Below are positions 1 through 24,000 of a stretch of 32,000 nucleotides of DNA, piece by piece. Location: assembly GCA_963662715.1 (NCBI GenBank), contig OY759724.1, positions 1,170,001 through 1,202,000 on the forward strand, read 5' to 3'. Both the position numbers and the translations under genes were made by a program. Origin of the DNA: Candidatus Omnitrophota bacterium. GTDB taxonomy: Bacteria > Omnitrophota > Gorgyraeia > Zapsychrales > JANLHA01. Below the pieces are notes generated by a model that was not told where the DNA came from, made no database searches, and saw only the letters and a program-made list of their open reading frames with translations. Position 1 is the first letter of the stretch; every line of letters begins with the position of its first letter.

Positions 1-3000
1 TTCTTACCAGCTCCCACAACTCCTCATCCGTGATCCCGCCCTCCGGCACATTCAACGCCTTGCGCCAGTACAACGCATTTGTTGGCTCATCATACAGGTA
101 ATCCACAACACTCCGACCTTCCGGCAGCACCAGCTGATGCGTCGGAATCCAGATATACCGACTCGCACTGCTCCGCTCATCAAACGTGAACCGCACCGAT
201 GACTGCAGCTGCAGCCCCAGCTCTTCCCTGCGGTCTTCTCCGAAACCTCTTTCTTTCAACCCGGCATCCGTATAGGTCTTCAGGCCCGGGAACGCGAACG
301 TCCAGCCCTTGTACCACCAATCCAGCGGCTTGACGTCCATCCCCAGGATATGCGGCATGATAAAATGCGTGAACTGATCGCCCGGCTGCCTGGCGATGAT
401 ATACGCCCCGAACTGGATCGGTTTGGCAAATCCTTTCACCTTGCGGCTGAACACCTCTTCGATCTCATTGAGCCGGTGCGGCCCGTTCCACGGCCGCGGC
501 GTTACCCCGCCCTCTTCGATCGGCGAAGAAGTTTCTTCCAACGGCCTTAAGTCTCTGATCAAATCAAATTCGGCTAAATACCGCAACTCCTGGTCAGTCA
601 AACGCTGTTGAGAAGAAGCGTTACGGACTTTACGAATCAAATCCTGCAGCTCAGGATTTTGCTCCCCGGTGAAAACATAAGGCACAAACCCGAAATGTTT
701 AATGTAGAACACAGCCGCCCCGGCTTGCAGGGCATCGTCAGCAAACTCTTTATGAGCTGTTTCTCCTCCGAATTGTGAATTTGAAATAACAACGCCCTCA
801 ACATCAGGATATAAAATCCGCACCGCATTCAATCTCTGTTCGAATATCTTCCTGGAGAAATAATGCCTGAACCTCGGGATGATCTTATATCCGATTGTGA
901 TCTTATCATCCAGCAATGAATGGAACGCTCCATGACCGATCATGAGCTGCTTCTCCAGCAAGAAACCTTCCGCGCAGTTCGTCAGATCATCAGTGAACCA
1001 CATGATCTGCTGAATGCCAAAATCATGAGTCGCCACACAGCACGTTCGGGTCCCTTTGGCGCTGAATCCTCCGATCCAGAATTTCTGGAGTTTGAAATAA
1101 TCTATGAACTGTTTCAGGTAGGCCTGTCTTTGCTGTTCGGAAGCAACCAAGCGAACGTTCGGGAGAGATAAGAATGCTTCTAAATCGGCTTTGACGACCT
1201 CCGGGCTCTTGTCGTCATTGACCGGGGAGCTGCTGACACTATCGTCACGGCGGGTCGCGTCTGCTGACTGATCTTTAATGATCCGGACAGTCTGGTCAAA
1301 AACAAGCTCATAGACCGGGTCAAAGCTGTGGTCCAGGTACCGGTTATAAACTGTGAGGACTTTTTCCCTCCGGGCAATTGTCACATACGCCTGAGCCGGC
1401 AAATAGCTTCTGACCAACAGCACTTTAACTGTCCATTGTTTAAGTTCTACCTGATGCTCCACCTGCGCCAGCCGCCAGTGTTTCAAATACTTCTCTGGGA
1501 AGACATCATAATATTTCTCATATCCTTCATTGAGGAAAGGCAAACACAATTGCGTCTCCCATCTTTCCAAATGCTTGCTGACCAAGCCCGTTTGCGCATC
1601 TCTGTGTCTGTACCAGCGGGCAAGCATCCTCGTCCATGTCAACAGGGTTTCCCAGAGCCGTGTGCCGATACGATTCCGGAAGACAATGATTTCATTTTGT
1701 CCGGCTTCTGGCGCGGAAGACCGGGCATGCATTTGGACTTTTACAGCCTGCTGCCGACCTATCGGGGAAGAAGTTTTATTCTGCTCTTTTCGGTCTTCAT
1801 CCGAACTCTTTAAAACTTGTTTCTGTGCCGCGTGATCATGCGTCGTCAAAAGCTTCTGTGAGTTGGGCCATAAGGCCATAAGACCCAGGATGCCGCCGAT
1901 GACGTAGGAAACAACATCCCATTTATCCGGAGTTGAAGTGATGCCCCACCACTCCAGGACGACAGAAAGAGCAACCATCCAGAAAAGCGTTGTCTTGGCA
2001 AGCCCGCTCTTTCTTTCCACAATTCTTCTTACAAGGACATCGGCATGGCTGGAAATGCGTGTCGTGACAAAACGTTTGAACCTGGCGGCGACAGTGTGCT
2101 CATCCAGCATGTTCGCGAAACTTCTCACTAACTTCAAGAGGATAGGTGTCAAGAGGACAAAAAGCGGAACGGAAACATAATCAGTGTAATGGTCGCGGAT
2201 CAACACGGCCAGCGGAGTCCCGACCTTGACGACTGTTTCCCGGAGAATATCATTATAAATATAACTCGAAAGCGAAAGCAGGGTTGATATAACAGCCGGT
2301 CTGTAATAAACAGATTCCTTAATAAATATTTTGTGTTTCAACCCATCCTCTACCGTCTTGGCGATATAGAACAGACTCATCGCGAAGATGACGCCGAATT
2401 CGCCCATCTGCAGCACAAATCCGGCCAGAAGCCCCATGATAAACAATCCTCTCGCCGGACTCACCGGGGTTTTAGGTTGAGACGAAGACTCCCCGGATTC
2501 CGGCTCTAACCTGTCTAAATAGATTATCGCCAGGGCGCCCCCGACAGCAATTATCATATAAATACCGAATAAGTAGAGAGCCTGGCCGAGATGAGATAAG
2601 ACCGGAGCAAGCGTCGGATTGATGAACGCAAAACTCGTTGCCACGAATCCCGGCATAAGCAGGCCCAGGACGGCGATAATAGAAAAGACCGTAATCTGCC
2701 GGATTTTCCGGAAAGGCTTCCTGGCGGCGGAAGCCGACGTTTCAGCAAAGGATATGCTTGCCACATCCTGCTGCTGAGCGATCCGCTGGAGAAGCTCAAC
2801 GTTAAGAATACGGTATTGTTCCTGAGAACTAAGAGCGAAGAAAGCCGGATGCAGGTAAATCGTCCTGCGCCCGACGTCAGTTCTTGCCGCATACAGCCCG
2901 TCGCCCAAAAGATCCGATCGCGCCGTTACAGTCAAGGAGAAGAAGCCGTAATCTTCAAAATCAGCCATGCCTGCGGTTTGATCCGGCGGGCCATGGGCGT

Positions 3001-6000
3001 CCTTGTGCAGTTTCACCAACGTTGCTTTTATCGTCTCAAGCCAATCTTTCCGGAAGCAGGAAGACACATCGTAAAGCTCCACCCCTTCAGGGTTCCAAAG
3101 GGCTTTGGCCTGACCGTCAGAATAATCTTCATGAGAAACCCTGCCGCCGGCAGATGCGCCTGAAACAGGTGAAGAAACATCATGGTCTTTCCCTTGCTGA
3201 TCGCCATCCCTCAGAAGCTGGGCGCGCCAGTAATGCAGGCCCATATCCCGTAACGATGTCCTCTGACGCGTTTCGTGATCAAGCACCGCTCTTAAAATAT
3301 CCTTCGGTGTCTTTTGAGGTTTTAGATAGAGAGCATTCAAATCATCCTTCTGCCCCATCTCAATGACGAGTTTATACGGACGTGTCTTCACTTCATACGG
3401 CAGCAGCAGATTCATTTCATCCACGTTGCGGGAAACATCCTTGGAATCATCGTACACATTCAGATCCGGTTGAATACGGACGAATCTCATTTTGACCAGC
3501 ACACCTTGTTTTTCCGCTTCATCCAGAACGCCCTGAACCAGCAGGAAGGCTTCTGTTTCCCTCCTCAAGGCATCGTACATATCTTCTCCCTCCTGCACTT
3601 TCATGCGGGTATCGGCAAAAGCGATAAACACAACGGCATTTGGGGCGAGTACAGACGGCAAATAATTAATATATTGCTGCACGGCTTCCTTAAATGATTT
3701 CTCTTTCAGGAAGAACGGTTTAATAAGCGTGACAAGCTGGGCCCGGAAGCCTTTCCCGATCATTTCACTCAAATCATCTTTCAGCAGAATATTAACCGGA
3801 GCCTCAGCATCCAATGTCTCGGCAGATACATGGACGCCTAACCGCTGCAGCTCATCCCGGTGATGTTCGGGGACAACATCTTCTTTATACCATTCCTGAG
3901 CTAATTCCGTGCCGATGACCGTCGAGCGCGCACGGACGTCCATTCTTTGCAGGGCCCTTCTCACCCGGAGCGGAACAGTGCCGTAACCGGTTCCGATATC
4001 GAGCGCGGTAAAACCACGCTCTGTTTCCGAACGGCCGTAAGCCTTTTTCATCACGGCATCGAAATACGTATCTTCACTCAAAACCGGAACCGCGGCATAG
4101 GCCTGCCGCTCCAGATGCCGCACAAAAACATACGGAAGCTCAAGCAGCTGGTTCATCTGCTGCAGTCCCACAAACGCTTTCCGTCTGTTTGAACTCTTAA
4201 CTTTATTGAAAAGATATTTGAGGATGGCTCCACGGACAAAGATGTAAATAACCGCAAACATGCCGCCCGTGCTTAAGACTTCACCGAACAATGTCCATGC
4301 GGGGATAGAGCTGACAAACTCGGCCAACACCGCGCCCAGCTGGTCAAAACTGAGATGAACAAAACCAGGGTAAGTCAGCCCCGTGAAAATAAACGCGGCA
4401 ATGCCTCCCAGCACCATGACCCCGAAAGCGGAGTCACGGCGGTCAAACCCCTGGAGCTGCAGAGCGATATAACCGGCTGACGCCGCAACCGACAGGCTTA
4501 CTTTGATCAATAAAGCTTTATAAGCCGACACCATGGACATCAAGGCTGTCACGAGCGGACTGAGCCATGCCCCGTGCACCAGCCAAATGTTCAGGAAGAC
4601 CCCGCCTATAATCAACCCTGCCAAAAGGAGTATAAACGGTTTCGACCATGACGTACGGAAAGATTTCACAGCAGCGGTTAAGCGGCCGTTAGCGTTAACC
4701 AGGATATGGGAAAGGATAAATGTGCCGGCGAAAAGAACACCTACAGCAGCCGGGGTCGACGGCAGAATAACGCTGCCCAATATCAGGAGCGCAAACGACA
4801 AGAATGTTATCCGTTTATTTGCAGGAGCAAAGGCCTCCCGGCCATGGAAAAGATGCCATAAAAGCTGCAGACTGAGCGACACCCCGATGAACGGCGGAGC
4901 CACGGCCAACGGGATACCAAAAGCCCAGCTTAATATCACACTGCCGCCAACCACAAATAATCCCGTTTCAATAACGGCCGGAGCCAGGACATAACCGACG
5001 AATCTCCCCCAGTGGGCTGTGATGCGTTTGTACACCCGTTCCAGCCTCGGCCAGCGGCCGCCGGTCATAGGAGAACTGCTTGCCGGCCCGTCCGTACCGG
5101 AATCGGAATCTTTTTGCAGTTGTCTTTGAGCCAGCACCATCTCTCTCGTATAAAGTTCTTTAATAACGGCGCTGTAATAATGTTTCAAGAATTGCGGAAC
5201 GTCTGTCAGATAAATAAAATTCGTTGTTTTCGTGACATAAGCCAGAATATTCTCTTCGCTCTTGGAGAACCGCGGCGGCGTCAGATTGTCCAAGCGGTCA
5301 AAGATTTTGATAATTTGTGCTATTTGGTTTTCTACCCTGTGCCCGCGGATGATTCTGCTCAAGAAGTCTTCGTCATCCTCATGAGATCTCTGTGTCAGGA
5401 TAAGAACGGTCCGGGTAATCATCCGCACGGTCTCTCGGTCTGCAAAGGCTCTCAGCCGCTTCTGTGTATCGGAAAGAAGGCGCAAAACATTGCCGCCGGC
5501 GTCTGCGTGTTCTTCAACAACATCATGCAGGAGAGTGGCCGCGATAATCACTTCAGCCGGAACACGGTTCTGCAACAAATATCTGAACAACTTCCTGTTT
5601 TGTGAAATAGCCAAGGCAATGCGGATCGGATGGGTCAAGTACGGCTCCCCGCGTTCACGCTGCATACCGTGATGGACAACATAAGCAATCCGGTAAACTT
5701 CATCAAGCAGGGCGGCATTAAACGAAATATCATACCGGTTAAGATTCTGTTTAATATCAGAGAACGTCATATCGAACCACATACGGCTGTATTCCACATT
5801 AGAATATTCGTACAGGTGAATGTTGACCGAGGGGATGCCCTGCTCCATAAACGGCGTCGTGCTGCGGAACAAGGATTCCATTTCCGGGAAGAACCGGAAC
5901 CATTTCCCGGCGGTGGTTAACAATAAAGCGCCGTCCCGCATCCAGTTAAGCATATTATTGGCAATAATGGCGGTCTGAATGGGCTTGGCCACTTCTTGCT

Positions 6001-9000
6001 GAGCTTCAATTAAATATTCATAATAGTTATAAAGGAGCAGATCAAATTTTTCACCTTGTTCCGGAGCAAAACTCTTGAAATCAGCCGGCCTGATCTTGAT
6101 AAGCTGTCTGATATTATCTCGCGCCTGAACGGTCCGGTAATTGACCGCATGGAAATATTTATTAAGCAATCTCCGGCTTTCCGAGATCATTCGTCTCGGG
6201 GTATCGAAAGTCAAGAAGACATGCCGCGGATAAAATCCCCGTTGCGCTATGTTCAACATCTCCGCATTATCGTTGACCACGGTAATTTCAAAATTATGCG
6301 GTGTCAACTGAATACCTCTAGCTTCCGCTTCTTCCATAAAGGCAATCGCAATACGATGCGCTTCCGCAACCATCGGTCGTCCGGACAGACTTCTGATACC
6401 GCCGAAACTCAGGATCCTGATCTTATCGCCCAACTCTCCCCTCTCAAACCGGTCCATAATGCGCGGAGCGAGTTTTGTCTGCAGCATTCCGAAGACCGCC
6501 CGGCTTTCACCCATGCCGTTAAATAAATAATAAGGATAATGATCCCTCTTCCTGATATTCCTGCGGACCGGCGAAGACGACTGTTCTTTGCGTGAGGCGG
6601 CCCCGCGCTGGATTGAGACCACTTGCCCTTGCGCATTCCTTTCATAAACTCTGCTGCCGTACCGGCGGTACTGAGGTGCGGGGAAGTGACGGCGCAGCAG
6701 CCGGAACTCTTCGAATTGATGCACAATACTGTTAAGGTGGAAATATCGTCCCCGCAAAGTCACCGGAGGAATATTCTCGTCCGCTGCTCTTAAAATAAAT
6801 TCATCTTTGCGCGTCCGCTCTATCGTCAGAATGACCTTCCGGGTTATCGGGGACAGGAAGACGATTGTCTCCAGCCTGCCGACGGCTTCCCTCATAACGT
6901 ATCCAACCCGCCGCTCAATGATCAGGTCGCTGGCCTTGGATACCGCAAAATATGTCTTGCCAAAACTGACGCTCCGTTTCTTACCGCCTATTTCTCCCTC
7001 TCTTCTGGTCCGTTGAATATTTGTTTCAAACTGTCTGAACGGTTTATATTCCCGCAGGTTAACGGCCTGGCGTTTTCCATTTTTATGGGTTTTCACTTTA
7101 ACCGCCGTCTGCCCCTGATACGAGACATAAATACCGTCTTTTTCCGCACGCAGGATAAGATAATTATTTTCATCCTGGACATCAATCAAGGCCAACTCAC
7201 CGGCCCGGTCATTGCGGTGGACGACAACCTGGCTTGGTTGTGACACATAAACCTCGGGCAATTGTAAAAGATGTCCGGACAGGTTGACACGCTTGCCGGT
7301 CAGCTCTCTTTTCTCGTCCGGATCTCTGAGGATATTCCTGTTCCTTTCCATCTGCCGGTCAAACTGTCTGAACGACTCATAATCCTGCAGATGTATCACT
7401 TTCCCTGATTGAGTATCGTGTGCGCTTAACACGGCTTCCTGATTTTGATACACTAAGGTGACTGTCCCGCCTTCTGCGACAAATAATAGATTATGATCTG
7501 TTTGTTTCTTATCAGCCAGCACCATCCTCGGAGTTTTCTTATGCCTGTAGACAGTCACCTTAGCGAACTTGCCTGCTTTGGGCCGGTAACTTCTTGGGAG
7601 ATTCAACTGATAACCGGCAAAATACAGCCGCAGATCAGCAATATCTCTCGCTGTCCCGCGCCGCCGGACGTCTGCGATGTAACGCTTGGCCTGAGACGAA
7701 GTGACCGGGCTGGAAACATCTTTATCGTGTTTTTCCGGCTCTGAGGCTTTTGTTCCTTGAACATCAGACTGTTCAGCCGCAAAATTTTCCTCTTCTGCCA
7801 AACGCCGGGCTCTTCGTATGATGATGCGCCGTAAAATGAGGATTCCCGCCGCAGCGGCAGCCGTGGCCGCGGAGAAGAGCCCAACGAAAACAACCGGCGA
7901 AATTCCCGGGCCTTCAGCCAAAGTCGCTTCTTTCTTCTTCATCCGTAATAAAGCTCTCCGGTTTTTACGATTTTCTCTCTCTCCTATTTCACGTTTAGCG
8001 ATTTCTTTTTCTGTCTCAACCTGCAGTTCCTTTCGCTCCCTGGCTTCCAGACGCTGGACAAAAGACTCGAGGAACCGGCTTATAGGAGCGTCAACTTCAT
8101 AGCCTCGCTCAAGGAATCTTTCCGGCAAATTCTGATGGAAGGCTCCCATTAAAACAATGGCCCGGGAGTTCGGCACAGATTTCAGGTAGGCTCCAACTTC
8201 TTTGACGATTTTCCCTTCTCTTAATTCTCTCTGTTTAATACGGGTCTTAACCGGAATTTGTCTCGTTGGGTCGCGGTTCAATTCCAGGAAGACCTCTGCA
8301 AAAGGCGGAACTTCCAGCCGCAGCTCTACTCTTCCTATATTCCTGGGATCAACCATTTTTTCAGCCATATAGCCCAGAAGCGTTTCCTGGAATGTAATAT
8401 CTGCCCGGTCTTTGTTCTCCTGCCAGTTTTGCCATTCCGCCCGCCAATCTTTCTCTTTTAATTCCGCAGCTTTTACTCTGGCATAACGCTTATACTCCGC
8501 CTCAAACGCTTTCCGGTATTTTCTGTCCTTGAGAATTCTCGGCACATCCCAGCCCGGGAAAACCTCTCTTAGCCCTATCCATGGATTAAAACGATTAAAG
8601 ATAACATCTTCCATGTATACAAGCACTTTCTGGGACCGTGTCTCTTCAAAAGCCCGATCCATATTCTCCCTTAAGGATTCGAACAACCTCATATTAATTT
8701 CCCGGTCTTCGAAGAATTTAAAACTGTGCAGCATATAAATGATGTAGATATCCGGGACCATGGCGGCGGCAAATTCTCTCTTTTCGATAAATTGTGTGTC
8801 CCTGGAGCTTATTAATAACGCCCCCAGCCCAGCGGAGAATCCGAACCTGAAGAAATAACGTCTGGACATCTCTGCCTTCCGCGGCATATCGAGAATGGCA
8901 GAGAAGGCGCTTCTCTGCTCCGTTGTTCGAGTTTCTTTCTCTTCTTTCACCGGACTGGATGAAGATGACGGACGGGCCTGTTCCGGCCAGATCGGCTGGT

Positions 9001-12000
9001 CGTTATAATCCCGCACCAACCGGATCGTTGACTGCGCCAGCCGGTAATAAATAGAGTCCGCGGCAAAGACACTGCCCAGTTTAGGCATTTCGGACCCGGT
9101 GTAGGCAGAATATTTTTTATTCATCGGCTTAAGCTTTGTCTTCACCGCAGCCTGATAAAGCCGGCTGTCTGCCGACGATCCCTGTAAAATGCTTTCCACA
9201 TCAATCAGAATCACGACAGCGTTTATAAGATTATGGATATTCTGCATAGCCGCATCGCGGGCCGGATTAACGATATACCAAATATGCAGCAGGAGGCCGA
9301 TGGCGCCATCCCTGATTTCTCCCTCTCCCCGGCCTAAGATGACGCGCAACAAGAACGGTAAAGCAGCGAACAGATTCTTTCTCAATTCTTCAGAATGCCG
9401 AATGTTCTCGATTCTTCTGCCTTGCTGCCAATCTGACAAGCCGGCAAGGTCGGCGAAGTATTGGCGCATGGTCCCGACTTTTTCTTGCCAGGCAGCGCCT
9501 TCTATCTGTTCCAGGCGGTCGGCTACACCCAGTAATTCTGCGCGGGCAGCCTCTGATTGCTTTTCGACTTGATCCTTCAATGCCCGAGCCGCAATAAGTT
9601 CGGAAGAGTCCTCCGGCTGACCTTCCCGATCTTGCTCCGGCATTTGAGCCGGCTCAACTGTCGGAACAACCTCTGTTGTTTCAGGAGAAAGGGCCTGTTC
9701 ACTCACAAACAATTCTGGAATCTTTAAGGCCACCGTATGATATACGGCTTTGACATTGTTTTCTGTGCGGTGTTGCATTTGCAGGTGTTCGGCCGGATAG
9801 CCGGCGGCATTCAACCCGATCATCATCAACTCGGCTGTCATATCATCTGAATTAAAGTAAAAAGCTTCTTTTAAAGCCGCGCGGGCTTCTTTACGCAGCC
9901 GGGAAATTGTTTCTTTAACTTTCGGTACGGCTCTCTTGCTTTCGTGGTAACGCGCTAAAGTTCGCTTTTCTTCTGCTTCAATCAGCTCTAATGCTTGAAT
10001 AACCGAATCAAAACTCTCGTTAAACGCACGATCCAAAGCATCGAGCCATTCCACAAGGACTTTTAGCGTCCGGCTGCGAACGAATAATTTTCTGAGCAAT
10101 GCTGTGTTCGCAAATACTTTAATCTTTCTGTAAGTCTTTAAGGTCTTCACACAATGTTTGTGAATAGAAAACATCGGTTTCTGAACAGTCCGGTTACCAG
10201 ACCGGTAACGTTCGATTTCAACGTTCATCATCAAGGATTCGGTGGAAATTCGATCTCCGCGGAGCCTGGCCTGCAGAATAACGGAATGACTGAGAATCAG
10301 AATGGAGTCCTCTTCCGCTAATCTATCTCTCAATAAGGCCGCGAAAGACTCCGGAGACCAGGTTTCGAAGGTATGAACATGTACGATAACACAATCAACA
10401 TGACCGGCCGTATCGTCTGCGGTGAATTCATCTGCCTGATCATAGGATATGACTTCTGCTTGTCCCCACAGCATTTTCTGTAGCTGCCAAACCGCTGCCC
10501 GGGAATATCCGATCGTTGCGATAACAGGTTTCCCGGCCGTCTCTTTATCAAGCAGATGCCGCATATAAACATTAGCAAATTCTTCGGTAAAATCTGGCCC
10601 GCTGAAGTACCGGTAGCCGGCTGCGGCCGACCGCTTCGCCGTCACGTCTCCAACAGCGAATTCCCGGACAATGATGCCGGTCAAATTAACGGCAGGGTTA
10701 TGAAGAACGGCTTTTTCGATATAAAGGGCATATTCTTCCCGGGCATAATATGCGCCAAAGGTTGCTTCCGGAGACTCTATGAATATAACCTGCGGCGGGC
10801 CGCGGATGACGCTTTCATGTTTAGCCCCGGCTAAGAAATCCAGCGCTTCCGCCATATGCCACCTGGCAAATTTCAAATCATCGCCTTCAGCGGAGCGGGT
10901 CAGGAGCGCCACCTTGTATTGACGGACCATTTCTTCTTTTTGCTCCGCGGTGTAATCATCGCTCTTTCGCACAGGGGAGGAAGTCATTTCTACAAACATC
11001 CCGTCCTGAACTTTGTAAAGAATTCTCTGCTTCTGCGGCAGGGACGTCCACAGGCGGCCAAGCATTGTGAGCTCTTGACGCCCATAGGCCAAAACAAATC
11101 CTTGCTCCGTCATCATCATGGCCCGTAACCCGGCCCCCTGCACCAAAATAATCTGCGTGGGGAATCCTCGTCTTCGGCTGAAATGGACAAGGATGTTTTC
11201 AATCTCTTCAACCTGTTCCCGCATGCCTTGTTCGTATCCAATGATCAGAACAGGCTTGGCGTCACCCGCCTGCGTCAACATCTGCATGATGTCTGTAAGA
11301 CGCTTTCTTTGAACATCATAATAATTGTACGGCCTTCTTCCGGCCCAGTTCTTCCGGTCAGAGTCCGCATCTTCCGAAGGAATGACCTCTTCCTGAATGA
11401 TAAACACCCAGGGATTCTGCTGCCCGTCTCCGCGCACAGCATTGTAATCAACACCGTTGATCGTAAACGATCCCGTTGACACCGGCCGGCCCAGATTAAC
11501 GGCCCCGATTCCAATCTGACGGTCTCTGAGCCATGTCCCGTGGATAATATCTTTTCTGGTCGGGAATATGATCATATCAGCCCCGGCTTTGATAACACGC
11601 AGATATTTACCCTCAACCTGCTCGATCGTGCCGGGCACAGCCGCGCGCACAAACAGTTCAGCGTCGGAAATCAGCCCCCGAACGTTATCTTCCTCGCTGA
11701 CCGGAGAAGAGCTGCCGCCGTTTCCTTCCGTTTCCTTTTTGACGATATGCTGATTCACAAATTCGGCAAACTTCAAGGACGGCCCGACCATTAACAAGTC
11801 GCCGGCCAAATCGATATCGCTTTCCGATAAAGCAATCGCAAACCGTTTCGCCCAGATATCTTCCCCGGTATCAAGTTCATGGAACGCTATCCGGGCGAAT
11901 TCAGGCCGCAAGAATTCCTTTAAGTCTTCAAGCTCGGACAACAATTCCCAGCCTTCTTTGACGGATTTTCTGTTTAACCTTGGCAAATGACGTTTTTCTA

Positions 12001-15000
12001 ATATTTTCCGCCTGATGTGGACAATGTTCTTGACGGACCGGACACCCCTGCCGGCTTTTGTCGTCACAAAGATATCCTTGGGCGTCAACGTCTCCGGCGG
12101 AATTTCCTGAGGAGCGACTTTTCTTCTCTTTTTGGTCTTCTTAACCGGGAGGTCTAATCCCTTATCTTTCAGGGCCGTCCTGACAGCAAACTCAATGGCG
12201 AATTTCAAGACCTGATACGGCATGGTCGGGCGGTTTCCGTGACGGACGTTCGTGTATTTGCTCATAACAGGCAGGTATTCATTTGTGACAGGAGCCCATC
12301 TCAAGAACCGGTCAATAGCGTATCCCCATGGCGTAACAACGATCTTGCCCATGGCTGTGGCGGCATGCATCGTATAGGTGTCCGGCGTCACGACGACATC
12401 GGCAGAATTGATAAGCTTGTTCAACCCTTCCAGATCATGCTGATATGTTTCCATGATCACAAGCCGGCTATCCGGGCCCTGCACTCTTCTGTAGGATCCG
12501 ATCTTTCTGTTTATCTCTGACCAGGCCTCTCCGGCGATGTCATGTTTTCGGGCTGTTTCACCGCTGTCAACAAGCACGGCCAACCGTCCCCCGTAACCGA
12601 GGATAATTTCCGAAACGATCTTGTTCATCAACCCGTAATGGTAGTCTTTTCGTTCAGTAGAGCTGAAATAATTAAATAAGACAACCACCCGTTCCGGGTA
12701 ACTCAGCTTCAGGCCGGAAGTCATTGTGTAACGCACGGGCTGATCCTGTCCGACCAAACCTGCAACTTCGGCATAATGCCTTTCCTGGGAATACACGTTA
12801 AGGATATGCGCATGTTCGTCCTTAACCTTGAACAGTTGCGTCCCGTCAAAGTAAATGATATGTTTTCCTAAAAGAAGGCTTTCCGCATTCTCCACGACTT
12901 CCACGTCCCGGCGAAGGGTGTACATGACAGACCGCTGTTGACTTCTCTGTATAGCCCGGAGGACTTCGTGGCTGGATCTTTTGTCAATGAGGAATTGGGC
13001 TAAAACCAGATCATACTGCTGCTCTTTGAGATACTTTGTCAACTTGCGGTGATGATAGGAATAAACAACTTTTTCCTGATCCGTGATATCAAAAGTGAAA
13101 AGATCGATCTCGTCAAAACCAAACACACGGCCGGCCCATTTCGTTTCCCGGCCTTTCCAGATGGTCTTCTTGTTCGGGTGAGTCACCACCGTTACTTCTT
13201 CAATGTTCGGATGAACCGCCAGGATGTTCATAACGCCGCTTTCAATAAGCTCAACACCATAATCCCGTTTGGTCGGGCTTAAAATAAGCACGCGTTTTAC
13301 GGACGGCATAATATCTTTCAGCGGCTGTTCAATCAGCGGCAGCTGTGACAGCTCCACAGGCGAAGACGCAGAGAAACTCCGTGCTTCTTCCGTTCCCCGG
13401 CCATTTTGTGCCGGGCTGAAAACCGATATTGGGCGATATATTACTTCCTGCTGAGAAGGCTTGTTGAGGCTGCCGGTAGGCGGGCCGCGGTTGATCACAG
13501 AGTATTTTAAGGATTCCTGAACATATTGATGCTCATGCCCTGCGCTAAACATCACGTACAGATGTTTGATCAAAGCCCATGCTTGGACGGCTGTATAAGC
13601 TACGGCCTTTCCGGCTTTCATAAATGAAAGCCCTGTTTGCAGTGTTACGGCCAAGCCGGAAGCTCCGCCCTGCGGCAATCCCGAATCCGGTTGTTCCTGA
13701 CCTTTTCTCAACGGCCAGCTTTGGGTCTTCCCGGCAGCTCCCAACCACAGGCCCGGCATGAATACCGGAGCATACGGACCGATACCGACCGGGGAACTGA
13801 CAGGTTTTTGTAGGGCCGGAGCAGCCTCGACCGGGATGTTCACCGCTTCATGACGAATATCTTTTGCGCTATCCGTCTTATCCGTCTCCTGCCGTAACAC
13901 CGGCGAAGATCCGTTATTCGAAGAACCATTTTCAGCAGAACTATTAAAGGTCTCATCCTGCGCCAAACGAGCGGCGGCCTGCCATTCGGCGTCCATCCAA
14001 AAATATTGCGCTTGACGGATATCTATCCCGAAACGGCGGATGAGTTCCGCCTTTGATGCCAATGTCAACCAATTAAGATTTAACGGCCCGCCAATTTCTT
14101 TCTTAACCAATGACTCCAAGACCAAGGTATAAACATCTTCAGCTTTCATGGGATAGCGGTTCTCTGTCAGCAGATCCCGGGCCTTGAACTCCAGGATAAC
14201 AGGGGCAAATTTCTCTTCATCCGGTCTGGCTTGCTCCTCGGTAGACATGAAGGAGTTCATCTCTTTCAAAGAAAGCGTCGGGCGATAGTCATCATCCGAA
14301 ACAAATTGTCCGGGAACACGGTTCTGCTGCATAGCCCAGAATTCTGCCGTCCTGCGCTGTCCGGTGACTGAGTTCTCCCATGGATGGCCGGCCTTGGTTC
14401 CGTCACCAGCCAACCACGTGCGGACCAGTCCGGCAAGGGTGCCGTGATAAAGGACCAAATCTTTTTCCTCACTCACAATGGGGGAAGAACTGCTTTGGGC
14501 CGAATTAGCAAGGGTCAACTCAACACCTTCAGCGTTATCTTCTATAGTTTTAGCGGATTCAAGCGGGCTGGAAGACATAAAATGTTTATTATTCAAGAAT
14601 GCGCGGATTCCATTCACCTGTTTCTTCTGACCTTCATAGAAGAGGATCAGATCCCTTAAATGATCTTTACGTTTAAAGAAATCAATAGCCTGTCTGCTGT
14701 AGAACGCCTCGGCTTCGTCATCGTTCATGGATTCAACTGTCCTGTGCGAGCTTGCCACCCATCCCTGATACACCTGAATCATCGACTGCAGCAGGGTTGC
14801 TCGCAGGTACTGCTGGTTAAATTTCATGGCAGCGGCATACTTGAACACAAATTGTGTCCACAATTCCTGCGGCATCTTGAACCCTTCGAAATGATGTTTG
14901 GCCAAAGCCTTCAGTTCGGCAAAAATATCCAGCTCCCCGGGCAGGACTGGCTTCAGAACATCCTGGTAAATCTCCCAGTATTCTATATATCGGCCTAACT

Positions 15001-18000
15001 CCTCAATACCGGCAACATCGCTGACATGAAATTCATTCAGCACGACATTCCGGCGGCTGAGCTCATCCTGCAACCGACTCATCGCCGTCCTGATTCCCTG
15101 TTCGATATCTTCTCTTGCCCCGGAATCTTCTCCCTTTAACGCCTTCATCCTGCCCGCCGCTTCCTTCACTTCAACAACAAGCTGCTTCACCTTGCCGATA
15201 TCCTGCGCCTTAGCGGCCACTTCCTCTTCGACCTCCATGACCTTCCGGAAATGCTTCACGTAAGCCTCGTACTTCGCCAGGGCATTATGCCCTAACACAT
15301 CGGCTTTCATCTCTTTAACCGCAGGATCATTCAGGGTCAATATCTGCTTAATGGTCTTCACCCGCCGCCATTTCTTTCCGTTCTCACTCGCCGTCAAGAT
15401 CGCAGGTTCGGCCACTTCCTGGAACATCAGCTCCAGGGCGCTTAAAATCTGATCACCCAACTGATACACTTTGTCGCTGTCGTTATGCCACTTCGCCCAG
15501 AAGTTCGCCTGTAAAATCTTCATCGGCCGGGAAATGCCCAGCGGTCTGAACAGATATCTGTCAAGTCTCGTATCGCTTCCGGTAGATAACGCAGTCAATG
15601 TCCATAAAATGTCTATCTGCCACGCTCCGTTAGTGTATATGCCGATCGGGTCGTACAGGAAGATACGTCTCATCTCCGGCCCGACCCCGAATTCGCCTCC
15701 GATCGGCTGCCCGATATCCACGCCAAACATCTGACTAAACGGCCGGGCGATACTGTGGGTGATCGTCGCGTCATATTTGCTCCTTGTATAATACGGGGCA
15801 ACGAAACTCCGCGGACTCAACACCCAGTCCAGCCACACGAGCGCCCTTAACGGATAAATTTCTTTTCTGGCCGTCCGGATATATTTCCATAATCCCATAC
15901 GTTTTCTTACGCCTTTCCAGCCCGTCATTAACGGCCATAGATGATCCCGCACCCAGCCCGGCTGGATACTGCGCAAATCAGCATCATATGTCGCAAACAA
16001 ACCGTTCTTTCTGCCTAAGTCCTCCATAACGCCCAGACCCAAATGCAGGCTGAAGCCCTTTCCTCTGACAACTTCCGGTTTCAGCATCACAAGCACCTTC
16101 AAATCTTCCGAAAGCTTGCTTAAGCGTTCTTCATATGTCCTCTCGGCCACTCTCGCCGGATGTCCTTCCTGCCAGATAATAGCTTTCAGCACATCCTCCA
16201 GCCCGGCACCATCCCTTTCCGCCAGCTCTGCCTCGGCTCTCTGCACAAAATCATCCCAGGCCGCCAGTGTTTTCACGGAGTAGGCCAGCCCTTCCGGATA
16301 TCCTCGTCCGGCCACGAGGGATTCCTCCAGAGCCTGCAGTGTCGTCTGCCGGTTTCTTTCCGTCAATATCGCCCCGCGAGCCTCGGCCACCAGCTGTTTA
16401 TAAAGCTTCATATAATCCTGCAGGAATTTATATCCAAAACTTCTGGCTACCTGGATTCTGGCTTCCTTGACGAATTGTTTTCGTTTGGCCTTTTGATCGC
16501 TCTCCGAGAGTCCGGTCAGCAGGTGTTCCTGCCCCTGAACGATGTCCTGCACAGCTTCTTCAAACCTCATTCTTTCTTCAACGACCTTCTTCTTATCCCC
16601 TTCACGCGTCACCTCCGGCCAATCGCTCATTAACTTGTCGGTGATGGCAACATATGCTTCTACCCCTTTCTTCTCCCAATACTCAAACAGCGTGCCCTCA
16701 TTCATGTTGCTTTCATGTTCCCCGACAGCCATGACAACCGTTCTTTCCCCTCTTAAATACCGGTCATGCCCCAGGACAATGGCCTCCAAGACATTATCAA
16801 TGGTATCCCCTTCACTATAGAACGGAACTGTCACAACAACATCCAGGTCTCCCTCCCACGGCTGCAGCGCTTCCGGAATTTCTTTATCTATCTTCTTTCT
16901 CGCCCAGATTCGATATCCGATAATATCCTGCTCCCGGCTGCCGTTGCCGATGATCCGCAAGAATTGCGCTTCCAGCACCTCTATTAATTCCTTATACCCG
17001 GTTCTTTCGCGTTTTATCTTCTCTGTTTGAATGCCGTTGGCTTTCACCTCAACCTGATAAATCTCTGCCAAGGCTTTCAGCTCGGCCACGATCTGCCTTA
17101 AAACTCCTGGATATTGAAGTCCGATCTCTCCCGCACCGCTCATCATCAGTTCTTCCGTAATAGCCCTGACCCTCTCCCGGTTCGACCTCGTGAACGCCTC
17201 CCAGGAATCCCTCTGTTTTGTCAGGTCATAAATGGCTTTCAGATCCCCATATCTCCCGATAATCGTTTTATCTTTCTCTGTTGATTGATACCGCCCGAAG
17301 AAATCATGCGATAAAGAAGAATCCGTTATCGGGCTGGAAACGTATTGTTTTTTCGCTTCTTGGAACACGGACAGGACTGCCGGTTCACGGCCCCACGTCT
17401 CTTCCACCAAAACATCAACCTGCTTACGGACATTTTCACTGATGCGGAAATAATTATGCGCGACTCTTTGGTAAAGGGCTTTTCTGCTCTGGCCTTTCTT
17501 TTGATTTCTTTCAATGAAAGGTTTAATGGTCGTCCCGAAGAATGCGGCCGAATCGGCGTCCGAGAGAACTCTCAGATCTTCATAATAAGGCTCTTCTGCG
17601 GAAACAGCGCCCAGGATAATCTGTCCTTTGAATAGAACGGCATGAACCCCGGCGTCATGATGTCTGATCAGAAACGCCACCTTGGCTCTCTCCTGTTCCG
17701 TGAAGATGCCTAACTGCTCGAGAAGTTTATCAACAATGCGGGCGCTGTTAAGCGGATGTGACACTTTCTTTCTGATATTTTCATCAAAAGGCGCTTTAAG
17801 TTTTTGGACTTTCAATCCCGGCAGATAACGTTCAATGTCATGCCCCATAGCTGCTATCTGCAAACTGAGATCAGCTTGCGGCTTGATTTTCCTCGCCCAT
17901 TCTAAGACTTCATCGAAATGACGGAAATCGGTCTGCGCTGTATACTCGTCTTCCGGATCGATTTCCCGGTATATCCGCAGGATGAGTTCGCGGATATAAC

Positions 18001-21000
18001 CAAACCGTTTTTCAGATTCAGAAGCGCTTGAGATCCGGTCCCGCTTTATCGCCTTTTGGATTTCTGTTACGATCCCGCGGACTTTTTCCGGCAAGAGAAC
18101 CGGTCTCGTGCTGACGAGTTGTATTTGCCGCTCAGCCTCAAGCATAGCATCCCGGTCTTCCGTTTCTTTTTCCTGCACCGGCGATGATGAATCTCGTTCC
18201 GTGGCATCTAAGATAACCTGCGCTACTGAAAGCAGGTTGGATTGTGCCGTTTTATCTTCTATCGCGTTTTCCTTGAAGAACTGAACAACGTGCGGACTGG
18301 TGAGTTTGACCTTTTCCGTTAAATGATAACTTCGGAACGAATAGTAAGTAAGATAATCTTGGATTTCCTGACGGATATCATCATCACTGGCTGTCTGCTG
18401 GCGTATCTGGGCAACCATGTTCCGGGCTAATTGTATTTCGTCCTGAATCGGGGAAGAAGGATCACGTGGGCTTTGCTTCCTGTCCCTTTCCTGCCATTCA
18501 TAGAAGGTAACATGATTGATGCCCCAGTTGTTCAGGTAGCGCAACACACGCTGCCGCGGGGCATGCGTCCGGACCTGCAGGAGGTCTATCACTTCTTCAT
18601 ACAGTTTCACGTCTCCGCCCTTCACCGCCTCTACCACCAAGTCCCGGTTCTCTTCAAATATCTTCCGCTCCTGCTCATTCACGATAACGCTGTCCCTCGC
18701 CGGCATCAGTTCTTCCGTCGGCTTCAGATGCCGTTCCACAGCGTTGATCACAGGCTTAAGCTCCCCTTCCGACACCTCGCTCACTTCCGCCACCGTCAGG
18801 GCTGACAGCTGCGCCAATCGCGGAACCGTCACGTTAATCCCTTCCTTCTTCAGCCGGATATACGCCGCTATGATACTCTGGGCTTTCGCCGACAATCCTA
18901 TCGCGTCCCCGTAATACGCCAGGTCCTTCGCCGTCCTGATCGCCTTCTCTGCCACCAGCTCCTGCAGCACGTCCGCCTTCCTGATCCTTCTTTCCACCGG
19001 GCTCGAGCTCAGGTCCATCCGGGAAACCGGAAGTTCTTCACTCGAGAGTTCGACCATCAGGTCCCAGAAGTCCGGCATGATCCCTTCATAATCCGGATGG
19101 TCTGTCTGCAGCGTCTCATACGCCTCTTCCCCGATCTCCCGGAAATCCTTCATATCCTCCGCATCCAAACGGTTCACGTCAAACCATCTCTGACCTATGT
19201 ACCCCCGGCTCTTCACGTCATAGCCCAGGATCCCCGCCAAGGTAATCTTCGCCTCTCGCGCCTTCTTCTCCCCGCGCGGGTCCGCGTTCCACATCCGGCT
19301 CAATAACTCTCCGCTCTCCAGCACGCTCTTCGCGTCCTTCGGCGTCAACAATGTCAGATACAACCCTTCATTCCCTTCAAAATATTCATGCAGTTTCCTC
19401 GCATACTCCCCTTCCTTCGTCTGCGCCTTCCTCTCCGCTTCCGTGTACGAATAGTGCAGGTGCACATACCCCAGCTCCTGATTCGCCTGCTGGTTCGCAA
19501 ACATCTGGTTCGCCACATACAGCGGCGACGGATACGCATGCCGCGGCGTCCCAAACAGCTCGATGTTGATCGGCGCCCGCAGATACTTCACATCCGCCAG
19601 CTTCGGCTCCGGCTTGTAATACACGCTTCGTCTGAACATCGTCTCGATCGGCGTTGTCCGCACCTTATCCCACAGCTCCTCATCCGTGATCCCGCCCTCC
19701 GGTACATTCAACGCCTTGCGCCAGTACAACGCATTTGTTGGCTCATCATACAGGTAATCCACAACACTCCGACCTTCCGGCAGCACCAGCTGATGCGTCG
19801 GAATCCAGATATACCGACTCGCACTGCTCCGCTCATCAAACGTGAACCGCACCGATGACTGCAGCTGCAGCCCCAGCTCTTCCCTGCGCTCTTCTCCGAA
19901 ACCTCTTTCTTTCAACCCGGCATCCGTATAGGTCTTCAGGCCCGGGAACGCGAACGTCCAGCCCTTGTACCACCAATCCAGCGGCTTGACATCCATCCCC
20001 AGGATATGCGGCATGATAAAATGCGTGAACTGGTCACCCTTCTTTTTGGCGATGATATACGCCCCGAACTGGATCGATTTGGCAAATCCTTTCACCTTGC
20101 GGCTGAACACTTCTTCGATCTCATTGAGCCGGTGCGGCCCGTTCCACGGCCGCGGACTAGTCTCCCTCTCTTCAAGCGGCGAAGAGCCCGATTCTTCACT
20201 GCCTCTTTCGATCTGGCCCTGGCTCTCTGCGGACGTCTGACCTTCTTCTTTCTCTAACAGCCGCCGTGCTTCTTCACTAATCGTAACGGTATCCGTTAAT
20301 TTTTCTTCCGAACCGGCCTTGGTTTTCTTCCTGGACGATTTCTGATCCTGCTGCGGCCGGCGGTTATTCTCAGACTTCACAATTGGATGTATCGGCTCAA
20401 CTTTACGCTCGACCTTTTTCACCGGGCTGGATGTCGCTGAATAATCCTTGATTTGTTCACTTCCGTAAGATTGATACTCTTCAAAACTAAGCGGTGAAGA
20501 GGACATCACTGTCACAGCCCCAACGTTTGATGAAATCTCTGCTGTCCGGCTTTGTGTTTGCTTCCAGGCCAAATATTCTTCCGGTGTCAGAGGTGAAGAT
20601 GAGACCATCGTCACCGCGCCCACCGGAGAAGAGACCTTTTCGGCAGCCTGGGCCTGTTTCCATGCCGTATACTCTTCCTGAGTCAGCGGGGTAGAGGACA
20701 TCATCGTTGACGCGCCCACCGGAGAGGACACTCTTTCAGCGGACTGGACCTGCTTCCATGCCGTGTATTCTTCCTGAGTCAGCGGGGTAGAGGACATCAT
20801 CGTTGACGCGCCCACCGGAGAAGAGACCTCTTCGGCAGCCTGGGCCTGTTTCCATGCCGTATACTCTTCCTGGGTCAGCGGGGTAGAGGACATCATCGTT
20901 GACGCGCCCACCGGCAGCTGTCTCCTAACTTTTCTGTTAACGTCTGTTGTCCCGATCATTCTCACGACCGAAATATTTCGTGATGACTCATTTGCCCGAT

Positions 21001-24000
21001 ATTTCATATTCTCGATTCTATTCTTTAAGAACTCTTCTGTAACAACATAATACCCAAACAACCGTTGGGCCATGGCAACAAACCATCGCCAGAGCCTGAG
21101 CAATGATTCGAGCAATGAACCTGGCCGGAGAATATTTTCAACAGGGATGTATATTGTCAGAGAGTTGTCCTCCTCGTCTTCCACCGGAACAAATCTCAAT
21201 GTCACTTCTTCTTTCGGCACATAAGATGAAAGCATAAACGGAACGATCATCATCGAAGACGTCATGTTGGATCGTACGATAAGTTCCCGAGACATATCAA
21301 CCGGGCTGGAAGATATCTCTTTACGGGCATCCTGAATATAAGCAAACCTCACCCGGAAAACCTTCAAGGCCTTTACGATAAATTTTTTATCCATCCGGCG
21401 TCTGGCAAATTCTTCCTCTATCTTTTCAAGGGTTTGTTCTATTTTTCTTATGACATAATCCACCTGCTCGCCAAGAATTTCGGCAACGGCCTCTTGACTG
21501 TCAAACTCCACACCCGCCAGCACTTCTTCTATAAGCCATTGCTCCAGGAAGGCCAAGTATTCCCGGGCATGATTTTGCATGCTGGCTTTCTTCGTGTCTA
21601 AAATCGTCATTTCATAGAACGGCTTAAGCGGATTCTCCTCTTTGGTAAATACCTGACCAGCCCCAACGCCAACAGTGGCATTGACAATATGCCATAATAA
21701 TCTGACAATCAAAGTGTTCTCTATCTCCGTGCCCTTAATCTCCTTATAGACACGGATAATATCTTCCGCGGTGATTTGTTCTCCCCAGGCAACAGGCAAG
21801 ACTTCACTTAAACTGTCCACTGTCCTTAATTGATCCATTAAAATTTCTGTGTCCCATTTTGCTTCAATCGGACTGGAAACGTTTTCTTCATAAAGTTCAC
21901 CGAAGCTTCCCTTGACGGAACGTCCGGCGGCAGCCGCATCCCCTGTCTCACCCTTTAATAACACGGCTGCCACCGTATAAGTTCCTTGTCCCTTCACCCT
22001 TTCGTTGTTTGTTCCTGCCTCGGCCACCGGCGAGGACACCTCTCCGGCCTCTGAAAGCAGGTCTGTTGTTTTTGTTCTATTTCCTGCGATTCTCTCGCTC
22101 AACTCGCTTCTTTCTTCCCGGACTCCGGAGGAACGTCCGGCGGCAACCGCATCCCCTGTCTCACCCTTTAATAACACGGCTGCCACCGTATAAGTTCCTT
22201 GTCCCTTCACCCTTTCGTTGTTTGTTCCTGCCCCGGCCACCGGCGAAGACACCTCTCCGGCCTCTGAAAGCAGGTCTGTTGTTTTTGTTCTATTTCCTGC
22301 GATTCTCTCGCTTAACTCGCTTCTTTCTTCCCGGACTCCGGAGGAACGTCCGGCGGCAACCGCATCCCCTGTCTCACCCTTTAATAACACGGCTGCCACC
22401 GTATAAGTTCCTTGTCCCTTCACCCTTTCGTTGTTTGTTCCTGCCCCGGCCACCGGCGAGGACACCTCTCCGGCCCCTGAAGACAGGGTTATTGTTTGTT
22501 GACTGACCTCTATAGCCTGATCGATCACCGCAGCTTGATCCGGCGTGATCTTCAAGATAAGGTCTAACTTAGTTCCCTGATCAATATCAATACGTTCAAT
22601 GCTGTGTTCTCTTTCATCCCCCTTCTGCCAATAATACCCCCGGCCTTCTCCGGTGCTGTGCGTCTCAATGGAAATATTTTCTGCATTTTCGACCGTCAGC
22701 GTTAATCCATGTCCGAAATTACCGCCTTTATCCAAACGATTCCCCTCGACCACAGCTTCTTCAATACGGACATGTTCACCGTTCTGGTTAATAAATCCCT
22801 TCCCTTGATCCAAGACGATCACATGAATCGCGTCTTCGCCCTCTTCTGTCTCTGTTCTTTCAAGCAGGATCAAACCAAAACCGCTGCCATGCTGAGCGAT
22901 ATTCTGATTTATATATCTAAATGTCTGCTCCGCAGATCTGTAATGAGACAGGACAAACGAACTAAGCCCGAAAAGTTTTAATACAGACCAATCCAGAACA
23001 TTGGAATATCCCGAGAAACTCAAAACTCCTTCTTTTTTCATTGTTTCCAGAATCACTCTGAAGCGGTCCTTAACGGCTTGTTCCTCCCCGGTCAATTCCT
23101 TCTCGTACCAAGCATCCAAAGCTCTGATCCCCGGCAACAACTTCCACAACTCATTGACCGCTTCTCTCTGAATAGGACTTGAACTCGGGCCTTCAGGAAG
23201 ATCCATTCTCGAATGCGCTCTTAATGCCGTCAGCAGCGCCTCGGCCTGAGACATGCTTGCCTTCCCGTTTCGAATCGCATTGATGCCGGCCATGCCGATC
23301 TCTTCATTTTCTAGGAGTCTGAGGAACACCTCCTGAACCTCCGGAGTTCCTTGGCGGGTCGCTCTGGACAACACATACTTCACTAACCTGCGGACGGCTT
23401 CTGCGGCTTGCTCATACCCTGTCTCTCTCTCATACCCTATCAGGAAGTCGCCCACATAATACTGATAACTCCGGTATCTCTGGAACACCACCACGTTCAC
23501 CAGCGCCTTCAGCGTCAGCTCGAGAGCTCCCTTCTGCTTGCTGAAATCGTTCTCCTTAAGGAACCCGATCACCTCTTTGATCAATCCTTCCGCCTCTTCC
23601 GACCGCTCTATCTGCTCGCGCCCCTGCGCTCCTTTTAACCGGTACACTCTTGATACATATTCTTCTGCCTGCTCAAACAACTCAACAACCGGCTCCGGAG
23701 CTGCTTCAACCCGGACCACTCTCATATCAACCTTGCCCGATTTGTACACCCGTATATCGACGATCATCTCCGATTTGTCCTTCATCTCGATCCGCACTCT
23801 CTTCGCCTTCGGGGCATTATGGTAAATCGCCCACACCCGGCCGGCCTTCATCGCGTCAAAATCATCCTGAGGATATCTGTTCCTCAGCCAGTCCCTCATA
23901 TCTTCCGTGCGGGTTAACGTCATCTCATAACCCTGCATCCAGACAGCATCAATCTCTGCCATACGAAGGTCCTTGCCCAACCGTGCTTTATAAGCCGCCT

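Follow-up and report, generated by a model that had tools for sequence, protein, structure and literature searches.

How do two distant parts of a single gene come to be almost identical in nucleotide sequence? The question is raised by a 32,000-nucleotide (nt) stretch of DNA from a Candidatus Omnitrophota bacterium (contig OY759724.1, positions 1,170,001 to 1,202,000; hereafter the window), which is filled by one open reading frame (ORF) and in which a segment of 488 nt occurs twice. An original prediction, made from the letters of the window, had placed two copies about 97% identical and 19,656 nt apart, in frame, within one ORF, and an ungapped comparison together with a six-frame stop count bears this out. 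We consider it probable that the copies are paralogous modules inside one giant gene that have been homogenised by gene conversion, in preference to the products of one recent duplication. The segments concerned are listed here, with coordinates in the window and amino acid (aa) positions in the visible part of the ORF.

2..31999, minus strand: giant ORF segment of 10,666 codons with zero stops, open at both window ends; a chain of ~40 modules.
19668..20155, minus strand: repeat copy 1, aa 3949-4111, the N-terminal 163 codons of the orphan module A; its flanks are colinear with the related contig L001.
12..499, minus strand: repeat copy 2, aa 10501-10663, 97.3% identical to copy 1; its far end lies beyond the window edge.
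377..390, minus strand: divergent patch, reading RQP-G-D here and KKK-G-D at 20033-20046; it holds 7 of the 13 mismatches.
521..529, minus strand: Ser-Ser-Pro (SSP) codons opening the copy 2 module, the same codons as at 20177..20185.
20177..20185, minus strand: SSP codons opening the copy 1 module, the same codons as at 521..529.

Positions 12-499 and 19668-20155 match without gaps at a constant offset of 19,656 nt (3 × 6,552); the location had been predicted correctly, and its extent (14-498 and 19670-20154) was slightly too short. Repeat finding on the window, the self-comparison that the prediction had called for, lists the same pair independently as family D3, with its first 300 nt at 99% identity. 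Thirteen of the 488 nt differ (at 19, 47, 233, 335, 377, 380, 384, 385, 388, 389, 390, 421 and 455), where about 15 had been counted, and seven of these are packed into positions 377-390, where KKK is replaced by RQP and two further sites are synonymous; the clustering in one patch had been noticed before, with the patch put at about 20 nt in place of 14. When 13 mismatches were placed at random, none of 200,000 trials gave seven within any 14 nt (P < ~5e-6). Identity rises to 98.7% once this patch is set aside, and up to 185 nt in a row match exactly. Chance cannot account for a repeat so long and so similar. Six of the codon differences are synonymous and five are non-synonymous, and the two tracts share one frame, as had been stated; the correction to be made is that the ORF lies on the minus strand and runs off both ends of the window.

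Had the start of module A undergone one segmental duplication, very recently, with nothing but point mutation since, the overall identity of 97.3% would be accounted for, as would the four-fold degenerate sites of this pair (pair A), of which 67 of 69 are identical. Seven of 13 differences within 14 nt are, on the other hand, not expected from independent point mutations, and the edges of the tract raise further difficulties. At the N-terminal edge both copies have identical SSP codons (TCT TCG CCG, a spelling found at only five of the 40 SSP sites of the ORF), followed by Leu or Ile and then by identical GAA GAG. Seven codons follow in which 10 of 21 nt are mismatched (~48% divergence), and the 97% tract begins there; the earlier claim that both copies start just after an SSP motif thus holds for the shared SSP codons, whereas the high-identity tract starts seven codons later. 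Upstream of SSP the sequences of the two copies are unrelated, in agreement with a single duplication and with the earlier statement that the flanks diverge completely. That statement does not carry over to the other side, where just 11 nt are left in the window, six of them mismatched (~50% divergence). These differences fall in the last four visible codons, which nevertheless read W-[D/E]-[K/L]-V-R, the V and R being kept through synonymous changes; L001 has WEYVR. Homology thus appears, from the aligned codons, to continue beyond both ends of the near-identical tract, though at much lower identity. A single recent duplication would not be expected to leave ~48% divergence in the seven codons between SSP-x-EE and the tract, nor ~50% divergence in the last 11 nt with residues conserved. 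The stop of the tract 11 nt from the window edge may mark another short divergent patch, the true tract end, or a hint of a contig end.

Outgroup states are provided by L001 (Ga0116141_10019987, 4,982 bp), a contig from a metagenome scan that carries a 56%-identical module A. It is colinear with the window for ~2.5 kb in one open frame, through the module that precedes the repeats, the 32-aa repeats, a linker, module A and the next module, and the aligned region has 50% aa identity over ~830 aa. A 10-codon insertion is present in both window copies and absent from L001, which is in keeping with a single duplication, and the copies are 96.7% identical to one another versus 62.5% to L001, which enters this comparison without an orthologous second copy. 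Within the tract, copy 2 has the L001 state at five of the variable sites and copy 1 has it at three; among the five is a Pro that is conserved across much of the family alignment. In the divergent patch, the RQP of copy 2 shares its Pro with distant paralogues, and the KKK of copy 1 resembles the KTK of L001. Because each copy holds outgroup-like states at different sites, both appear to be real and independently evolving, and the pattern is mosaic.

The same states bear on the possibility that the pair is an assembly artefact, a false join or strain chimera at a repeat common to two genomes or strains, which we regard as rather improbable. The copies differ at 13 spread sites and agree with the outgroup at different ones, as expected if the assembly holds two distinct sequences; both flanks of copy 1 have independent confirmation in L001; codon usage is homogeneous over all 1,333-codon blocks of the ORF (r=0.70-0.90); and neither the frame nor the SSP architecture is interrupted on either side. 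A collapsed repeat would be seen as identical copies or a mixed consensus, and the 13 differences are fixed; a strain chimera would still put module A in two contexts. Four points favour an artefact. Breaks and mis-joins at repeats are documented for giant-gene assemblies (West-Roberts et al. 2023, bioRxiv 10.1101/2023.11.21.568195); the 185-nt exact run exceeds common k-mer sizes; the tract appears to end 11 nt short of the window edge, a suspicious position were that edge a contig end; and the sequence of a second related contig, L002, stops 200 nt into the equivalent repeat. The warning of an assembly hazard in the original prediction was a reasonable one.

Contig L002 (JAGOJP010000142.1, 'MAG: Candidatus Omnitrophota bacterium', from a sludge digester; MAG, metagenome-assembled genome) was found by a profile scan of species-representative genomes; it is 4.3 kb long, with one open frame and five SSP[VIM] sites. 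L001 3314-3513 and L002 4115-4314 match over 200 nt at 99.5% identity, starting at the exact VSSPV codons of module A, and are unrelated upstream. Either a related lineage also has the start of module A in two contexts, or L001 and L002 represent strain rearrangements, as judged from these two contigs. The second contexts of L002 and of the window are not homologous to each other. Two observations on these contigs may be added. Between nt 1 and 2300 of L001 the coding frame changes from 2 to 1 near nt 304-425, beside an SSP, and from 1 to 3 near 2163-2277, in a repeat of the 71-aa type; these switches are either assembly indels or real frameshifts. A GT5-like region in L001 and a GT4/TPR-like region in L002 are assigned by reading of the translations, not by Pfam.

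A diversity-generating retroelement (DGR), with the copies as its template and variable repeats, or a mobile element inserted twice, could also place similar segments apart. In the coding orientation copy 1 has A at seven of the 13 mismatches, as might suit a DGR, but the other six fall at other bases. Both copies code in frame within one ORF, the window holds no inverted repeats, Pfam detects no reverse transcriptase, transposase or similar domain (and no peptidase domain) in the window, and an Rfam scan of the window found no RNA family. Together the non-adenine differences, the coding context and the missing domains effectively refute a DGR, a transposon or any other mobile element as the source.

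The same gene holds a second dispersed pair, pair B.

26021..27007, minus strand: module B copy 1, aa 1665-1993, a whole SSP-to-SSP module (~329 aa), duplicated 949 codons downstream.
23183..24160, minus strand: module B copy 2, aa 2614-2939, with mosaic identity to copy 1.

The homology of the two B modules extends from the first Ser codon of SSP to just before the next SSP. Along this length the nucleotide identity is ~97%, then 55%, 95% and 80%. At four-fold degenerate sites of conserved residues, 39 of 43 are the same in the first 111 codons versus 42 of 67 in the rest (aa 1851-1880 excluded; Fisher p=0.0016). Protein-level constraint could not give rise to this heterogeneity at silent sites, whereas gene conversion could. 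The clearly mosaic state of pair B also counts against a single duplication as the source of pair A, an account that we hold to be unlikely, though less so than an assembly artefact.

The original prediction had offered very recent duplication or ongoing gene conversion as the cause of the near-identity; that core reading is supported, and the evidence leans to conversion. Conversion is favoured because divergent homology abuts the tract of pair A, because the tract has an inner patch, and because pair B is mosaic, including at its four-fold sites. Mismatches along pair A run 10/21, then 13/488 (with the inner patch of 7 in 14), then 6/11, and the identity of pair B alternates as given above, as a conversion mosaic should. 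Module A would have been copied 6,552 codons downstream, with its start at the SSP junction, and part of it would later have been homogenised, once or repeatedly, by non-reciprocal homologous recombination between the copies. The outcome would be a tract of 97-99% identity, with short stretches of old divergence at its edges and inside it. As direct, in-frame copies, the two would also be a substrate for RecA-type crossing-over, which would delete or duplicate 19,656 nt with the frame intact; the gene could in this way grow, shrink or be reshuffled by whole modules. We infer both conversion, rather than a one-off duplication, and these consequences of recombination from the patterns of identity.

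Several points weigh against gene conversion. The copy number of the repeat and the linkage of its copies are as given by the assembly. The homology flanking pair A is short, and at the C-terminal end of copy 2 its continuation at low identity amounts to four codons only. The similarity between SSP and the tract could partly reflect constraint on the motif, not common descent, and the synonymous heterogeneity of pair B could partly reflect local constraint on codons or mRNA. No second genome with an orthologous copy 2 was found.

The module that contains the repeat is complete in copy 1.

19007..20185, minus strand: complete module A, aa 3939-4331, from SSP to the next SSP, ~393 aa; an orphan family with invariant HxH and PxD.

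When 1.84 billion cluster representatives were scanned in full with HMMER, only six proved to belong to the module A family. Five of the six have SSP[VI] at the module ends, and the sixth (P0005, on contig L003) stands alone as a 420-aa gene that has a start and a stop of its own; one member is the C-terminal domain of a 1,832-aa protein (L005). The family alignment has invariant Y, P, G, R, N, HxH and [S/T]PxD positions, and in its motif P-I-E-x-G-x-Y-L the Glu is replaced by Gln in both window copies and in L001. Searches for a known relative of module A returned no match in Pfam at E up to 1, only chance-level matches in PDB by sequence and by profile, and no match in viral contigs or in a first genome scan. 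In a word-indexed protein search neither module A (aa 3939-4335) nor aa 4332-5810 gave a match, and the family profile retrieved P0005 alone. AlphaFold2 prediction of module A from a 7-sequence alignment had a pLDDT of 39.7 and was unusable. The HxH and [S/T]PxD motifs recall a JAMM/MPN+ metalloprotease, and this assignment was rejected: the two are 37 residues apart, which is the wrong spacing, the Glu is ~200 residues off and is Gln in the window copies and L001, and there is neither a Pfam JAB match in seven members nor a PDB match.

The remark on the SSP motif in the original prediction was apt, and the motif proves to be the key to the architecture of the gene. SSP occurs 40 times in the giant ORF versus 1.3 expected from shuffles, and at all 40 sites the next residue is V (25), I (10), L (4) or M (1), SSP[VILM] being expected 0.35 times. 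The residue before SSP is S, V, T, A, G or P. We write the signature as [S/V/T/A]-S-S-P-[V/I/L/M]; sites 31289-31297, 20177-20185 and 521-529 are examples. Its serine codons switch between AGY and TCN and the Val that follows is GTG, GTC, GTT or GTA, which indicates a constraint on the peptide and not on DNA or RNA; the motif was accordingly rejected as a nucleotide signal or hidden start site. SSP sits in a stretch of ~25 residues with a hydrophobic fraction of 0.16 (positions -10 to -1) and 0.22 (+4 to +13) versus a background of 0.345, and in composition this polar stretch looks like an exposed inter-domain linker. The pieces between SSP motifs are 11 to 922 aa long, and some of the shortest form tandem arrays.

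21917..22555, minus strand: three tandem 213-nt (71-aa) units, each with SSPV (family D1; 98% and 78%).
20559..20914, minus strand: three to five tandem 96-nt (32-aa) units, each with SSPV (family D2), just upstream of module A and conserved in L001.

If SSP were a cut site, the 71-aa and 32-aa tandems would yield short peptides in multiple copies.

The same punctuation is present in seven other contigs from other studies, namely L001, L002 and the contigs of family members L004-L008 (from NCBI, ENA and JGI). L007 has 16 SSP[VIL] sites in 11 kb (7100-18089), spread over three forward frames downstream of rpsB-tsf-gyrB fragments in an indel-rich long-read contig, and is probably another giant ORF broken by sequencing errors. 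Breakpoints of homology fall on SSP in pairs A and B, between L001 and L002, and between P0002 and the window; P0002 matches window aa 4480-4612 at 56%, and its synteny is lost just after SSSP[IV]. Either selection for rearrangements of whole modules or junction codons that favour recombination would bring about this coincidence. On these grounds SSP[VILM] is a candidate junction or processing signal. A term search for a junction motif, linker or cut site returned none in Nielsen & Lui (2026), West-Roberts et al. (2023) or Seymour et al. (2023; through full-text search only), the Velamenicoccus paper of Kizina et al. (2022) being outside this scope, and the SSP[VILM] junction signature is apparently undescribed in the searchable literature.

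The gene in which these modules are strung together has 31,998 nt of stop-free minus strand in a single frame, the other five frames having 260-612 stops each; a listing of ORFs within the window gives no long one, since this frame leaves it at both ends. Reassignment of a stop codon was rejected as an explanation, as TAA, TAG and TGA are all absent from the frame. The frame is coding, because it contains Pfam domains and the C-terminal domain of WaaA, because the differences between copies include synonymous ones, and because it is conserved at the protein level in L001. Only Glycos_transf_N and HATPase_c score above the Pfam gathering threshold: the Kdo-transferase N-domain (PF04413, the GT30 N-domain) with E=5e-18 and the histidine-kinase ATPase domain with E=7e-15. 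A GT9 match is marginal, a DUF4202 match (read as HD-like) occupies a module of its own, and a methyltransferase-like match is sub-threshold (E=0.084). All five of these matches lie in separate modules, and the module with the PF04413 match also has the matching C-terminal domain of WaaA structures PDB 2xci and 4bfc. Most of the 10,666 residues have no Pfam match, and no family in the window is repeated more than twice.

29744..31297, minus strand: Kdo-transferase-like (WaaA) module, a complete enzyme in one SSP-to-SSP module (piece aa 235-752); PF04413, PDB 2xci/4bfc.
2126..7903, minus strand: hydrophobic region with 13 segments of 19 residues (Kyte-Doolittle >=1.7), aa 8033-9958; putative membrane helices, called by a Kyte-Doolittle scan, which is a crude predictor.

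Two compositional features of the ORF may be recorded. Cysteine is scarce, with 13 of 10,666 residues (0.12%) and 0-4 per contig in the relatives, and the GC skew of the plus strand is negative in 32 of 32 one-kb bins (cumulative -4.64), the coding strand being consistently G-rich.

What might this architecture be for? A tentative answer, suggested by the placing of the motif and one that we think could well be wrong, is that the giant ORF encodes a bacterial polyprotein and that the SSP signature is the processing or junction signal dividing giant proteins of the Omnitrophota type into protein-sized units. A short motif does stand at the unit junctions: 40 sites versus 0.35 expected, in polar surroundings, recurring in the seven other contigs and coinciding with the breakpoints. 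If the gene does encode a polyprotein, one of its units would be a complete Kdo transferase and others would be multi-copy 32-aa and 71-aa peptides. Duplication, swapping and homogenisation of modules would then take place at these junctions, and the 97% repeat would show a 'gene within a gene' in the act. Known cleavage points are lacking for giant proteins, which has prevented their dissection (West-Roberts et al. 2023), and a polyprotein cut at SSP would supply them.

How giant genes grow, and whether their product is one chain or is cut, are open questions in the literature. On the first, the window indicates that whole modules are duplicated and are alike at the nucleotide level, and recombination between such copies, being in frame, can lengthen or shorten the gene by thousands of codons and leave it unbroken. 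On the second, a signature at nearly every module boundary, found also in distant relatives, leads to testable predictions of cleavage sites or joints. SSP is also of practical use, as a rule by which giant proteins can be divided into units before structure prediction, and for curators the repeat is a specific point at which short-read assemblies of such genes may break or be mis-joined.

Intragenic duplication with conversion is a known process, and the gene is of a known kind; the repeat adds a new example. Its interest lies in the contrast with a recent survey, in which such repeats were judged to be old: at the nucleotide level, repeats in giant genes are mostly 'dissolved' (Nielsen & Lui 2026, bioRxiv 10.64898/2026.06.07.730766). 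Unlike the repeats of that survey, the dispersed pair in the window is still 97% identical in nucleotide sequence, which qualifies the conclusion that giant-gene repeats are old and diverged.

In Omnitrophota an ORF longer than 20 kb counts as giant (Seymour et al. 2023, PMC10066038), a length that the window ORF exceeds. Published giant ORFs of this phylum combine unrelated enzyme domains (methyltransferase, HATPase, glycosyltransferases, NUDIX) with many membrane helices and few annotations, and the window ORF resembles them in being stop-free for >32 kb, in its unrelated enzyme-type domains, in being mostly unannotatable, and in its hydrophobic segments and internal domain repeats; its nearest labelled relative, and the only one, is the 4.3-kb contig L002, from a genome labelled Omnitrophota, the window itself containing no marker gene. 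It differs in having no SecA-DEAD, C39, S8, HEAT or dockerin domains in these 32 kb. Among named classes, the 'Archaeovorins' are giant proteins of at least 30,000 aa (West-Roberts et al. 2023). The numerous transmembrane regions of that class have a counterpart in the 13 hydrophobic 19-mers, as called by the crude predictor; its SecA DEAD-like helicase, HEAT, GT5, GT1 and TPR domains are not found by Pfam in the window and may lie outside it. The separate enzyme-type modules agree with class 1, the 'multi-enzyme metabolic cluster' giant ORFs (Nielsen & Lui 2026). By its domain content the window architecture fits the published multi-enzyme giant proteins.

Two systems from outside this group share parts of the pattern. 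The first is the concerted evolution of modules, for which the mycolactone polyketide synthase genes, with their near-identical modules, and the repeats of large bacterial surface proteins are examples. The window gene is like these mycolactone-type genes in its long in-frame near-identical modules, its mosaic identity and the scope for frame-preserving recombination to change the number of modules. It is unlike them in that its modules are unrelated enzymes, of which two families are duplicated, and in that the junctions carry a signature of four to five residues in place of docking or linker domains. The second is the viral polyprotein with a recurring short cleavage motif, as at the Q|G sites of picornavirus 3C and the sites of potyvirus NIa. 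The window gene differs from these in being a cellular bacterial gene, with no protease in the window by Pfam and with a motif that could equally be a structural joint or a modification site. The likeness lies in its division into protein-sized units by a strict short motif within a polar, probably exposed stretch, with one unit a complete enzyme and with a member of the module A family occurring elsewhere as a free-standing gene.

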